DNA of 64,000 nucleotides from Shigella phage CM8, in sequence record MK962750, one strand, 5' to 3'. Below the pieces are notes generated by a model. The model had not been told where the DNA came from and searched no databases. It saw only the letters and a program-made list of their open reading frames with translations. This document shows, piece by piece, positions 7,128-9,028 of the stretch (position 1 is its first letter; every line of letters begins with the position of its first letter). A program made the translations under genes and the position numbers.

Positions 7128-7352
7128 TTATTCAACGCCAGCGGCTTTCAAAAGTTTCTTAAGATTGGCAACACCTTGAGCAGAAAATGTGACCTTGCCA
7201 CCTTTTTCACTGATAGAACCAACCAATTTAGCAAGTTTATCATTAGGAATTTTTTTAAAATCAGCCAATGTTCCATCAAAGGTTTTTGAAACAAAAGGCA
7301 GTTCGTCTTCGCGTCTTTTAGCTTCTACAATAAATTCTTGATATGTTTTCAT
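7128..7352 (-). CDS. internal protein-like small protein (74 aa) with capsid targeting sequence
   Basis: Starts MKTYQEFIVEA (capsid targeting sequence consensus) from the second ATG, which has GGAAA-N5 upstream; promoter-in-hairpin element upstream. Confidence 0.65.
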   Translation of the reverse strand: MKTYQEFIVEAKRREDELPFVSKTFDGTLADFKKIPNDKLAKLVGSISEKGGKVTFSAQGVANLKKLLKAAGVE

Positions 7353-7436
7353 TTTAGTTTCCATTTGAGTGTTTGTTTTGATAGGGTAATAGTATCACTA
7401 CTAAAACCCAATGTAAACAACTTTGTGAAAAATTTA
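7353..7436 (-). promoter_or_regulatory. promoter-in-hairpin element upstream of the 74-aa internal-protein-like gene
   Basis: Same repeated core plus ctttgtgaaa; -35 GTTTACA, 17-nt spacer, extended -10 TGaTACTAT on the minus strand. Confidence 0.6.
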
Positions 7437-7724
7437 TTACAAAAGATTTTTAGCAATAATCTTGAGATGTGCCGCAGAAATGTGTTTAGCTTTAAACAAC
7501 GCAGTTTCTTCAGCAGGAGAGATAACGATTGTAGCACCATCCTTTTTAGCAGACCACCCATCGCCTAGGTAAACAGTACCTTTGATTTCTTCGCCATCAA
7601 CCAGACTAATCATTGGTTTACCTTCTCGTCCTTTATTTGCTTTAATAACTTCAGAAGTAAGAGTAGCTTCGGTAATAGTAGAAACCGGGGTAGTTGTAGA
7701 AGTAAATTCTTTGAAAGTTTTCAT
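7437..7724 (-). CDS. ipI: internal protein I-like (95 aa), copy 1
   Basis: [19 protein letters not shown]|ATL...: cleavage after the 19-aa targeting sequence at I-T-E would leave 76 aa, matching the recalled size of mature IPI*; sits next to 57B as in T4. Confidence 0.6.
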   Translation of the reverse strand: MKTFKEFTSTTTPVSTITEATLTSEVIKANKGREGKPMISLVDGEEIKGTVYLGDGWSAKKDGATIVISPAEETALFKAKHISAAHLKIIAKNLL

Positions 7725-7796
7725 TTTATTTTCCTAATTAATTTTGATAGGGTAATAGTATCACAACTAAAACCCTATGTAAACAACTTTGTGAAA
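7725..7796 (-). promoter_or_regulatory. promoter-in-hairpin element upstream of ipI-like copy 1
   Basis: Inverted repeat atagggt / accctat bracketing the spacer and -10; then AGGAAA-N5-ATG. Confidence 0.6.
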
Positions 7797-8054
7797 TTAT
7801 TTTAAATCTTCTAATCGTTTCTTCATCTTAGAACCGTTCTTAGCGATTTCGCCTGCATCAGAGCATAATGCTAAAAGCGCTTTAACTTTAGTTTGGTCTC
7901 CTTTAAAAGATGAAGGATCAACAGCAGCAGCAAGTTCTTTAATACGAGAGAAAAGACGCTCAGCTTCAGCTAAAGCCATTCCAAGCTTTACTTCCATACC
8001 GCGGGAAGATTCAGTAATAGTAGTTTTTGTAGCAAACTCTTTGAAAGTTTTCAT
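7797..8054 (-). CDS. internal protein-like small protein (85 aa) with capsid targeting sequence, copy 1
   Basis: MKTFKEFATKTTITE... with I-T-E and L-A-E sites; preceded by a promoter-in-hairpin element. Confidence 0.6.
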   Translation of the reverse strand: MKTFKEFATKTTITESSRGMEVKLGMALAEAERLFSRIKELAAAVDPSSFKGDQTKVKALLALCSDAGEIAKNGSKMKKRLEDLK

Positions 8055-8126
8055 TTTATTTTCCTAATTAATTTTGATGAGGTAATAGTATCACTACCTC
8101 ATCAGTATGTAAACAACTTTGTGAAA
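8055..8126 (-). promoter_or_regulatory. promoter-in-hairpin element, variant with 9-bp stem
   Basis: gatgaggta ... tacctcatc perfect inverted repeat around the -10; same -35 core. Confidence 0.6.
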
Positions 8127-8339
8127 TTATTTTAAATCGTCTGCCCAATCAACTTTAAGAGGTTCTTTATATTCACGATCTAATACGACCGGAATTTGTA
8201 CATCACCGCTAAATGATAAGGGCCCAACATTATAAGACAATGTTATATGCGGTGTGTAATCATCAAAATCGTGTGTAGCACCTAGTGCCCGCGCATACAT
8301 ATGTCGACAGCGCAGATATTCAGAATCTAGCACAAGTAC
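8127..8339 (-). pseudogene. truncated duplicate of the 3' part of gene 57B
   Basis: Identical to the last 70 codons of 57B ([20 protein letters not shown]...DWADDLK); homology stops at the duplication junction 8339/8340; no native start. Confidence 0.7.
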
Positions 8340-8410
8340 TGAGTGTTTGTTTTGATAGGGTAATAGTATCACTACTAAAACCCAATGTAAACAACTTTGT
8401 GAAAAATTTA
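8340..8410 (-). promoter_or_regulatory. promoter-in-hairpin element (copy of 7353..7436 type)
   Basis: Lies at the duplication junction. Confidence 0.55.
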
Positions 8411-8698
8411 TTACAATAGTATTCTATCATTAATCTTAAAATGTGCCGCAGAAATGTGTTTAGCTTTAAACAACGCAGTTTCTTCAGCAGGAGAGATAAC
8501 GATTGTAGCACCATCCTTTTTAGCAGACCACCCATCGCCTAGGTAAACAGTACCTTTGATTTCTTCGCCATCAACCAGACTAATCATTGGTTTACCTTCT
8601 CGTCCTTTATTTGCTTTAATAACTTCAGAAGTAAGAGTAGCTTCGGTAATAGTAGAAACCGGGGTAGTTGTAGAAGTAAATTCTTTGAAAGTTTTCAT
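8411..8698 (-). CDS. ipI: internal protein I-like (95 aa), copy 2
   Basis: Identical to 7437..7724 except the C-terminus ([12 protein letters not shown] versus AAHLKIIAKNLL). Confidence 0.6.
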
Positions 8699-8770
8699 TT
8701 TATTTTCCTAATTAATTTTGATAGGGTAATAGTATCACAACTAAAACCCTATGTAAACAACTTTGTGAAA
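8699..8770 (-). promoter_or_regulatory. promoter-in-hairpin element upstream of ipI-like copy 2
   Basis: Identical to 7725..7796. Confidence 0.6.
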
Positions 8771-9028
8771 TTATTTTAAATCTTCTAATCGTTTCTTCAT
8801 CTTAGAACCGTTCTTAGCGATTTCGCCTGCATCAGAGCATAATGCTAAAAGCGCTTTAACTTTAGTTTGGTCTCCTTTAAAAGATGAAGGATCAACAGCA
8901 GCAGCAAGTTCTTTAATACGAGAGAAAAGACGCTCAGCTTCAGCTAAAGCCATTCCAAGCTTTACTTCCATACCGCGGGAAGATTCAGTAATAGTAGTTT
9001 TTGTAGCAAACTCTTTGAAAGTTTTCAT
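8771..9028 (-). CDS. internal protein-like small protein (85 aa), copy 2
   Basis: Protein identical to 7797..8054. Confidence 0.6.
   Translation of the reverse strand: MKTFKEFATKTTITESSRGMEVKLGMALAEAERLFSRIKELAAAVDPSSFKGDQTKVKALLALCSDAGEIAKNGSKMKKRLEDLK

Follow-up and report, generated by a model that had tools for sequence, protein, structure and literature searches.

The segment at 7128-9028 belongs to a T4-like phage (Tequatrovirus) and forms its classical hypervariable IP locus, which runs from 57B/acb1 to tRNA.4. ORF translations in the window (the whole 64-kb stretch of DNA that was analyzed) revealed five ORFs on the minus strand at 9028..7128, namely two copies of ip5, two of ipI, and one of ip8. 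The features of the locus are as follows:

9101..9559, minus strand: 57B (acb1), full length, 152 aa, the upstream boundary of the IP locus (Pfam PF23474)
8771..9028, minus strand: ip5, upstream copy, 85 aa, leader MKTFKEFATKTTITE, predicted cut after E15
8411..8698, minus strand: ipI, upstream variant copy, 95 aa (Pfam IPI_T4, 1.3e-49)
8127..8339, minus strand: 3' fragment of 57B/acb1 (codons 83-152 plus stop), identical to 9101-9313
7797..8054, minus strand: ip5, second (downstream) copy, 85 aa, with the same sequence as the upstream ip5
7437..7724, minus strand: ipI, canonical copy, 95 aa (Pfam IPI_T4, 7.3e-54)
7128..7352, minus strand: ip8, 74 aa, leader MKTYQEFIVE, predicted cut after E10
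6881..7066, minus strand: tRNA.4, a predicted membrane protein of 61 aa that bounds the IP locus on the downstream side (phrog_1692, 6e-35)
7366..8339: tandem repeat unit A, 974 bp (repeat search and pairwise alignment)
8340..9313: tandem repeat unit B, 974 bp (repeat search, spacing 974, and pairwise alignment)
7091..9088, minus strand: seven intergenic regulatory cassettes (repeat search, promoter hits, and alignment), at 9055-9088, 8725-8758, 8359-8392, 8081-8114, 7751-7784, 7385-7418, and 7091-7124

All five ORFs begin with MKT[FY][KQ]EF (MKTFKEF or MKTYQEF) followed by an I-x-E site, and each has aromatic residues at leader positions 4 and 7. According to the rules worked out for the capsid-targeting leader, residues 4 and 7 determine targeting, residues 8 and 10 determine processing, and gp21 cuts after L/I-x-E (PMC9026906); the five leaders conform to these rules for both targeting and processing. 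The initial annotation, which had described small proteins of 74, 95, and 85 aa bearing such a leader and I/L-x-E sites, was therefore right for every one of the five minus-strand ORFs. In Ip5 the first [LI]-x-E site falls at residues 13-15 (ITE15), in Ip1 at 17-19 (ITE19), and in Ip8 at 8-10 (IVE10), yielding predicted mature proteins of 70, 76, and 64 aa, respectively, with pI values of 9.0-9.8; mature Ip5 and Ip8 are small and basic, with predicted pI values of 9.5-9.8. A six-frame scan of the 64 kb did not find the strict leader pattern outside the five ip ORFs, and a looser pattern added a single degenerate match (MKSYTQFLNE, at 2970..2497). The ip8 gene has an alternative upstream ATG that would give a protein of 78 aa; we place the start at the ATG of MKTYQEF because alignment of the cassettes sets the Shine-Dalgarno sequence before that codon and because homologues start there.

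By analogy with T4, the leader would bring each Ip precursor into the scaffolding core of the prohead, where the prohead protease gp21 would cleave it after Glu. The mature proteins, of 6.9-8.0 kDa, would then be kept in the head in hundreds of copies and enter the cell with the DNA. Judging from their leaders, Ip5 and Ip8 are probably packaged and cleaved by gp21; of the three, only the identical Ip1 is known to be present in the virion in processed form and to be ejected with the DNA.

The product of the downstream ipI gene (7724..7437) is the internal protein I of T4. It matches the Pfam family IPI_T4 (PF11634; 7.3e-54, 180 bits, the cut-off being 25) along the entire mature domain of 76 aa, over residues 20-95 it shows 100% identity to chain A of PDB 2JUB ("Internal protein I"), and all 95 residues are 100% identical to IpI of T4, RB14, and T4_ev240. 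The predicted cut after ITE19 would release the 76-aa IPI*. Thus, T4 IPI and the canonical protein here are the same protein; they share the ITE cleavage site and a gene position adjoining 57B, and the earlier guess that the 95-aa protein is IPI, with 76 aa left after ITE, proved correct.

The 74- and 85-aa proteins, to which no assignment had been given, are likewise known: they are Ip8 and Ip5, 97-100% identical to named GenBank proteins. Ip5 is 98-100% identical to the annotated Ip5 of RB14, RB15, and T2 and matches phrog_3499 ("internal head protein") at 1.2e-48; Ip8 is 97% identical to Ip8 of RB15 (Z35082) and 100% identical to that of UFV-AREG1, and matches phrog_8765 ("internal virion protein") at 2e-25. 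Both names occur in GenBank record Z35082 of RB15 (Repoila et al. 1994) and in RB14 (ORF141), for the T-even IP locus. The proteins described for that locus (Repoila, Tetart, Bouet & Krisch 1994) are 97-100% identical to ours, sit at the same locus, and have the same flanking cassettes; what differs is not the proteins but the combination Ip5-IpI-Ip8 and the duplication described below. The ip genes are thus textbook members of the locus, sequenced and named in 1994. Their designation as a family holds for the leader but not for the mature proteins, since pairwise comparisons of mature Ip1, Ip5, and Ip8 detected no mutual similarity.

Ip5 and Ip8 are narrowly distributed. A word-indexed search of 5.8 billion proteins returned 5 clusters for Ip5 and 15 for Ip8, the named sources being T-even-type Escherichia phages, and when mature Ip5 was compared exhaustively by phmmer with 1.84 billion representative proteins, there were two matches, Ip5 itself and a Mosigvirus paralogue. 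This paralogue, 47-48% identical, sits in the Ip2/Ip3 locus of Mosigvirus, between e and denV. Among phage records, Ip5 is present in about 270 at 80% identity or more and Ip8 in about 106, Klebsiella phages included. The profile and structure searches of the mature proteins that had been proposed were productive for Ip1, through its IPI_T4 match, but for Ip5 and Ip8 they recovered only the proteins' own families and no significant fold match: searches of PHROGs returned their own "internal protein" families only, Pfam gave sub-threshold noise (DUF4479 and DUF7890), and NCBIfam gave no match. AlphaFold2 models of moderate quality suggest a two-helix hairpin for Ip5 (pLDDT 72) and a small alpha/beta domain for Ip8 (pLDDT 69). 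Foldseek comparisons of the Ip8 model with the PDB and of the Ip5 model with BFVD gave no match with E <= 0.001; resemblances of Ip8 to KH-like or PNPase-like folds had E > 0.04 and were dismissed as noise.

The flanks of the locus are shared with RB14, T4_ev240, RB15, and UFV-AREG1, all of which have 57B, 57A, and gene 1 upstream and tRNA.4, tRNA.3, and tRNA.2 downstream; the position of tRNA.4 matches that in RB14, UFV-AREG1, and RB15. The sets of cassettes between the flanks differ: Ip5-IpI in RB14, Ip5-IpI-Ip8 in T4_ev240, Ip5-Ip9-Ip7-Ip8 in RB15, and IpI-Ip9-Ip7-Ip8 in UFV-AREG1. Among the records examined, only T4_ev240, which is also the closest genome, has the Ip5-IpI-Ip8 array, in unduplicated form.

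Every ip gene is preceded by its own cassette of early promoter, stem-loop, and Shine-Dalgarno sequence. The layout is a stop codon, TTTCACAAAGTTGTTTACA (the -35 element), a stem enclosing GTGATACTAT (an extended -10 element), and then AGGAAAATAAAATG. The cassettes correspond to seven sigma-70-like matches (TTTACA-17-TACTAT with TG), and their stem, formed by GATGAGGTA and TACCTCATC (ATAGGGT...ACCCTAT), is visible both in the sequence and in the predicted fold. The pattern occurs seven times, always in the IP locus, with none expected by chance. A T4 late promoter (TATAAATA) was not found immediately in front of the ip genes, and on the same strand the closest is at 10149; late expression must therefore use read-through or early-type promoters. 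In their general design, an early promoter and stem-loop repeated on the flanks of small accessory ORFs in a hyperplastic region, the cassettes resemble the PeSL (promoter-early stem-loop) elements of Arbiol et al. (2010) and Comeau et al. (2014), which have been proposed to mediate shuffling and which their authors link to the T4 IP locus (PMC4122927, PMC2839356).

What might Ip5 and Ip8 do? Ip1 (IPI*) binds and blocks the GmrSD type IV restriction enzyme of the CT596 type, whose substrate is glucosyl-hmC DNA. Ip1, Ip2, and Ip3 each block a different GmrSD enzyme (Silas et al. 2025, PMC12373910), and the initial annotation, in which IPI* was the sole internal protein of known role, has been overtaken for this reason: Ip2 and Ip3 inhibit the distinct enzymes GmrSD-ECOR21 and GmrSD-ECOR17 (PMC12373910). 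Silas et al. predicted the same class of target for the remaining Ips of both loci (PMC12373910). Ip5 and Ip8 share with T4 Ip2 and Ip3 the leader, the delivery route, small size and basic character, and the kind of hotspot in which their genes lie, and membership in the class of GmrSD-inhibiting Ips goes by function rather than homology. By this analogy, Ip5 and Ip8 most likely inhibit other first-response nucleases, with further variants of the GmrSD family as the most probable targets. The view that these are capsid-targeted, gp21-processed, injected, and likely anti-defence proteins thus survives, as a reading of sequence, but not their framing as uncharacterised, as they are already named. 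Indeed, the individual genes encode the known internal proteins Ip1, Ip5, and Ip8, and the hypothesis of an anti-defence role is already the field's own, confirmed experimentally for Ip2 and Ip3 in 2025. Our reading of the whole, which we hold with considerable confidence, is of an IP locus with ip5, ipI, and ip8, in which Ip5 and Ip8 are most likely injected nuclease inhibitors and which carries a 974-bp tandem duplication.

Injected anti-defence proteins could also act on systems other than GmrSD, such as other DNA-sensing nucleases or systems triggered by DNA entry. Mature Ip5 and Ip8 are unrelated in sequence and in predicted fold, the models suggesting a helical hairpin and a small alpha/beta domain, and the locus adjoins the anti-CBASS gene acb1, so that the neighbourhood is not limited to anti-restriction functions. 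However, the three T4 Ips with known targets are also unrelated in sequence and yet all act on GmrSD-family enzymes, and Silas et al. argue that the whole palette of Ips follows GmrSD diversity (PMC12373910). We therefore regard non-GmrSD targets as possible but rather unlikely. A different proposal, that Ip5 and Ip8 have no anti-defence role and are basic "filler" that neutralises the charge of the DNA or aids assembly of the core or head, as reported for IPIII, appears improbable to us. It would suit the small, basic mature forms (pI 9.5-9.8), and T4 IPs do bind DNA when salt is low, and mutants in IPIII assemble heads more slowly and give smaller bursts (PMC9026906), but a generic role leaves unexplained the rapid turnover of cassettes among otherwise near-identical phages and fits poorly with a taxonomic range as narrow as that of mature Ip5 (two matches in 1.84 billion representative proteins). 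Moreover, IPIII itself proved to be a GmrSD inhibitor (PMC12373910). Ip5 and Ip8 are reasonable next candidates for screens against GmrSD panels. Internal proteins belong to the phage molecules that host immunity encounters first, and the IP locus constitutes a natural library of such effectors.

The duplication of two genes noted in the initial annotation is borne out by the sequence, but it is a single 974-bp tandem unit, whose acb1 fragment and altered IPI copy had been overlooked. As judged by repeat search and pairwise alignment, the units at 7366-8339 and 8340-9313 are identical except for eight substitutions. Each contains the 3' part of acb1/57B (the last 70 codons), ip5, and ipI, and the result is one extra ip5 gene and one extra ipI gene, the latter altered. 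Both genes had been called duplicated, and the ip5 copies are indeed identical, but the 95-aa proteins differ at five residues. The arrangement is a head-to-tail direct repeat with one novel junction, as expected of segmental (accordion-type) amplification, and the junction joins position 8339, in the interior of 57B, to position 8340, just downstream of the cassette that follows ipI. The two sides share no bases in register; the only common sequence is the 4-mer GAGT/ACTC, displaced by 1 nt. In the sequence, the segment (3' acb1, ip5, and ipI) has been doubled in tandem by a non-homologous join, which would double the dose of ip5 and ipI. None of 50,697 phage records contains the junction as continuous sequence, and it had no exact match in IMG/VR, metagenome contigs, or genome contigs. 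In HEMP5, the one record with two Ip5 matches that was examined, the second match lies away from the IP locus rather than in tandem there. The duplication and the variant ipI copy, both absent from the collections searched, are the new elements here.

The duplication appears to resemble the amplifications of anti-defence genes that T4 readily makes under selection, as in the experimentally evolved tandem amplification of tifA (Srikant, Guegler & Laub 2022, PMC9391042). As in that case, a short head-to-tail segment contains counter-defence genes and a novel junction unites sites that are normally separate. Unlike the tifA amplifications, which had 6-10 bp of microhomology (PMC9391042), it has no clean microhomology of that length, there are only two copies, and these have diverged in a 24-nt patch. 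It also departs from PeSL shuffling, in that it was not made by cassette-to-cassette recombination, since one breakpoint lies inside 57B.

The locus carries both an intact 57B and a fragment of it. The full-length gene (9559..9101) matches Pfam Acb1 (PF23474) at 7.5e-60 over profile positions 1-144 of 144, and its translation has the complete 2H tetrad (H44-S-T46 and H113-I-T115); T4 57B is Acb1, an anti-CBASS 2H phosphodiesterase (PMC9117128). The fragment (8339..8127, residues 83-152) covers profile positions 73-144 only. It is probably a dead remnant, since it brings neither a start codon nor a ribosome-binding site and is missing the H44/T46 half of the active site, and T4 Acb1 with the H44A substitution is catalytically inactive (PMC9117128).

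The eight substitutions that distinguish the ipI copies are clustered within 8414-8441, and there are none elsewhere in the 974-bp repeat. The five changed residues all fall within the last nine, where the canonical protein ends in HLKIIAKNLL: L87F, I90N, A91D, K92R, and N93I, in a conserved C-terminal helix. In four alleles at 84-92% identity and in RB14 and T4_ev240, both identical to T4, this helix varies only at N93T. In the variant, I90N occurs together with N93I, so that a hydrophobic residue is kept on the same face of the helix, and the product (8698..8411) still matches IPI_T4 at 1.3e-49 (166 bits, profile positions 1-75). The variant 3' end was not found in phage records, IMG/VR, metagenome contigs, genome contigs, or a protein-to-contig index, nor was a donor of the 24-nt patch found within the 64-kb window, where the longest shared k-mers (11-12 nt) are at chance level. 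Two candidate sources of the changes were rejected: mutagenesis in the style of a diversity-generating retroelement, as the changes are not adenine-specific, and quasi-palindrome template switching, as the variant gives no better hairpin and loses a predicted pairing between the ipI 3' end and the cassette.

Could the duplication and the odd second ipI be an artefact of assembly or sequencing, or represent a minority subpopulation, the real array being a single ip5-ipI-ip8 as in T4_ev240? That the junction and the variant 3' end are absent from the phage, IMG/VR, metagenome, genome, and protein collections would be in keeping with such an origin, as would the unduplicated array of the closest genome and the repeat-rich nature of the locus. 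But the junction unites the interior of 57B with unique sequence that follows a cassette, neither of them repeated, rather than two copies of a cassette, and repeat-induced mis-joining is therefore unlikely. The differences in ipI are also unlike typical read error, in that eight substitutions occur with no indel, with frame and length intact, and with the hydrophobic residue kept on the same helix face. For these reasons we judge an artefact or a minority subpopulation to be unlikely.

Taking the duplication as genuine, then, we note that T4 overcomes GmrSD-ECOR21 only with extra Ip2 supplied in trans (PMC12373910), and the dose of an Ip therefore appears to matter. The duplication could represent an accordion step, in which type IV restriction selected for a double dose of ip5 and ipI and the helix of the spare ipI was then remodelled, retargeting IPI* to a resistant GmrSD variant. 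We regard this scenario as speculative and quite improbable; if true, it would show for the first time how a new Ip specificity arises via duplication and divergence. Alternatively, the altered C-terminus may simply inactivate the second copy of Ip1. The duplicated, diverged ipI is in any case a natural variant to examine for changed specificity. As a minor observation on its sequence, the substitutions in the variant ipI create an 8-mer (ATACTATT) that, while too short to be evidence of anything, is identical to the -10 region of the cassettes.

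A six-frame scan of the 64-kb window bore out the starting observation of the initial annotation, that small ORFs here combine an internal-protein leader with an I/L-x-E site. Five such ORFs were found, all on the minus strand and all beginning with MKTFKEF or MKTYQEF, and neither leader was present elsewhere in the window. The sole extra match to a relaxed leader pattern was a 157-aa ORF (2970..2497) that starts with MKSYTQFLNE. The five ORFs lie in what we refer to as the internal-protein (IP) locus, between gene 57B and tRNA.4, within the stretch 9559-6881. Genes 57A and 1 (dNMP kinase) are directly upstream, and a tRNA cluster (3723-4976) is downstream.

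9559..9101, minus strand, gene 57B
9028..8771, minus strand, 85-aa ORF, upstream copy
8698..8411, minus strand, 95-aa ORF, upstream copy
8339..8127, minus strand, 3' fragment of 57B, 213 nt
8054..7797, minus strand, 85-aa ORF, downstream copy, same as the upstream one
7724..7437, minus strand, 95-aa ORF, downstream copy
7352..7128, minus strand, 74-aa ORF
7066..6881, minus strand, tRNA.4, a small membrane protein

The small ORFs are known, named genes, and the locus was characterized thirty years ago. By sequence identity, the 95-aa product of 7724..7437 is IpI, internal protein I of T4. It matches Pfam IPI_T4 (180 bits, E 7e-54), and its full-length precursor is identical to IpI of T4, RB14 and T4_ev240. 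The proposal that cleavage at ITE would yield IPI*, the mature form, was upheld: the 76 aa that would remain (residues 20-95) match PDB 2JUB, the IPI* structure solved by NMR, at every position. The 74- and 85-aa proteins had been left without an assignment, but both are 97-100% identical to named proteins. By the same measure the 85-aa protein is Ip5 (98-100% identical to annotated Ip5 in RB14 [FJ839692], RB15 [Z35082] and T2), and the 74-aa protein is Ip8 (97% identical to RB15 Ip8 [Z35082] and 100% to a UFV-AREG1 ORF). The title of Z35082 is 'Bacteriophage RB15 DNA for Ip5, Ip9, Ip7, Ip8', and its annotation places the end of 57B just before ip5 and the start of tRNA.4 just after ip8; thus, the RB15 locus is the same as that of the window.

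In T4, the first ten residues of IPIII are enough for encapsidation, leader residues 4 and 7 control targeting and 8 and 10 control processing, the gp21 prohead protease cleaves after the Glu of L/I-x-E, and about 300 copies of each IP are kept in the head and ejected with the DNA (PMC9026906, PMC3012670). The sequences of all five ORFs conform to these leader rules. The first L/I-x-E site ends at residue 15 in Ip5, 19 in IpI and 10 in Ip8, giving predicted mature products of 70, 76 and 64 aa, respectively (6.9-8.0 kDa, pI 9.0-9.8). No pairwise similarity was detected among these mature products, so the term family, which had been applied to the proteins, holds for their common targeting peptide only.

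IPI* blocks GmrSD of E. coli CT596, a cutter of glucosyl-hmC DNA. Nor is it the only internal protein with a known role, as had been supposed: the enzymes inhibited by Ip2 and Ip3 are GmrSD-ECOR21 (BrxU-like) and the two-gene GmrSD of ECOR17, respectively, there is no cross-protection, and the authors conclude that all proteins of both Ip loci are probably aimed at GmrSD variants (PMC12373910). IPIII lacking its capsid-targeting sequence is active from the host cytoplasm, according to Srikant et al. (PMC9391042). The initial annotation, correct as observation, was broadly correct as biology in naming candidate anti-defence effectors, but the literature already holds this view by consensus, and part of it is proven. 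By this scheme, the Ip5 and Ip8 precursors would be packaged into the head, their leaders cleaved, and the products injected to inhibit a first-response nuclease.

The profile and structure searches that had been suggested gave no function for Ip5 or Ip8 by homology or fold. Neither protein had a match in Pfam and NCBIfam, and both matched only 'internal head/virion protein' families in PHROGs. A search of 5.8 billion proteins returned 5 clusters for Ip5 and 15 for Ip8, those with a named source coming from T-even-type Escherichia phages, and an exhaustive phmmer search of 1.84 billion representatives, with mature Ip5 as the query, recovered only Ip5 and a Mosigvirus paralogue. AlphaFold2 modeled Ip5 as a helical hairpin (pLDDT 72) and Ip8 as a beta-alpha-alpha-beta-beta-alpha domain (pLDDT 69); Foldseek with these models found nothing at E <= 0.001. 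We consider an anti-defence role for Ip5 and Ip8 reasonably likely, and we put forward a GmrSD-family enzyme as their target more tentatively. Alternatively, the two proteins might act on a different defence target or serve a generic DNA-charge or head-assembly role.

By tblastn, Ip5 is present at at least 80% identity in about 270 phage records, and its paralogue (47-48% identity) in about 228. In Mosigvirus the paralogue (positions 2001-2282 of sequence L010, Mosigvirus LH01) sits in the interval from lysozyme e to denV, which is where the second IP locus (Ip2/Ip3; T4 ipII/ipIII) is found; hence, the Ip5 lineage has switched between the two loci. Ip8 is present in 106 phage records (tblastn). 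Klebsiella T4-like phages account for 52 of these (about 80-84% identity), as many as coliphages, which suggests that the target of Ip8 is not E. coli-specific.

Each gene of the IP locus is preceded by a common module of about 70 nt, in which the stop codon is followed by TTTCACAAAGTTGTTTACA (-35), then by GTGATACTAT (extended -10) within a short inverted repeat, and then by AGGAAAATAAAATG. The core pattern occurs seven times in the locus (chance expectation, zero) and nowhere in the rest of the window. No T4 late promoter (TATAAATA) was found directly upstream of the ip genes, the nearest on the same strand being at 10149, inside gene 1. In its sequence, the module has the promoter-early/stem-loop (PeSL) architecture that Krisch and colleagues proposed to drive modular shuffling and explicitly tied to what they had observed at the T4 IP locus in 1994 (PMC2839356, PMC4122927). 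Related phages have the same flanks and differing sets of cassettes between 57B and tRNA.4: Ip5-IpI in RB14, Ip5-IpI-Ip8 in T4_ev240, Ip5-Ip9-Ip7-Ip8 in RB15, IpI-Ip9-Ip7-Ip8 in UFV-AREG1, and Ip5 with a different 77-aa Ip in HEMP5.

Two of the proteins had been described as duplicated. Both indeed have second copies, but these belong to a single exact tandem repeat with a period of 974 bp (unit A, 7366-8339; unit B, 8340-9313), which contributes an additional copy each of ip5 and ipI, as well as residues 83-152 of 57B. At the novel junction (8339/8340), base 8339 falls in codon V83 of 57B and base 8340 in unique sequence just downstream of the cassette following ipI; hence, the breakpoints were not two cassette copies. 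No microhomology lies in register at the junction; the sole match is a GAGT 4-mer one base out of register. 57B is Acb1, an anti-CBASS 2H phosphodiesterase (Pfam 7.5e-60; PMC9117128). Its fragment (8339..8127) keeps H113/T115 and, because it lacks H44/T46 and an evident start signal, is almost certainly inert. The IP locus directly adjoins acb1 in a compact counter-defence island of about 2.5 kb, and the remnant (8127-8339) created by the breakpoint within acb1 is catalytically incomplete.

The window is from a Tequatrovirus genome; T4_ev240, G2540 and others share 96-97% identity with it across 25 kb, and it has no identical counterpart among 50,697 phage records. The junction was absent from phage records, IMG/VR, metagenome contigs, genome contigs and the protein index, and an assembly artefact is an unlikely, though not negligible, source of the repeat. 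T4 readily makes segmental duplications under selection, as in the amplification of tifA (PMC9391042), and the most economical reading is that the duplication of this counter-defence segment is real.

Only eight substitutions distinguish the two units, which are otherwise 100% identical. All eight crowd into 24 nt of the upstream ipI, at its 3' end (8414-8441). They replace HLKIIAKNLL in the product of 8698..8411 with a different ten-residue segment (not shown), preserving the reading frame, the length and the hydrophobic face of the helix (I90N is paired with N93I). Among the other IpI alleles compared (four sampled from Tequatrovirus and Mosigvirus, with 84-92% identity, and those of RB14 and T4_ev240), this segment varies at N93T alone, making the upstream copy an outlier in sequence. 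Folding prediction pairs the canonical 3' end with the cassette that comes after it (-21.7 kcal/mol, z -2.5), and this pairing is lost in the variant (-19.1 kcal/mol, z -1.1). The variant 3' end was absent from the same five collections as the junction, and no donor was found within the window; the patch may well have come from an unsampled allele through a short conversion. With its diverged IPI copy, the tandem duplication adds a minor novelty to a process already known.

Beyond the tRNA cluster and not part of the canonical IP locus, the 157-aa ORF (2497-2970, minus strand) has a degenerate leader resembling the capsid-targeting sequence (MKSYTQFLNE|AVLNE), has L-x-E sites and matches phrog_2280 (unknown function). 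At the corresponding place RB14 has a 187-aa ORF with a capsid-targeting sequence (MKTYAEFLTE...), and the 157-aa ORF may encode an additional, larger internal protein. Finally, two homing-endonuclease ORFs (4156-4806 and 4983-5615, minus strand), one GIY-YIG/SegB-like (phrog_314) and one HNH (phrog_14736), interrupt or adjoin the tRNA cluster, which comprises six tRNAs (Arg, Met/Ile-CAU, Thr, Ser, Gly and Leu) as against ten in RB14.
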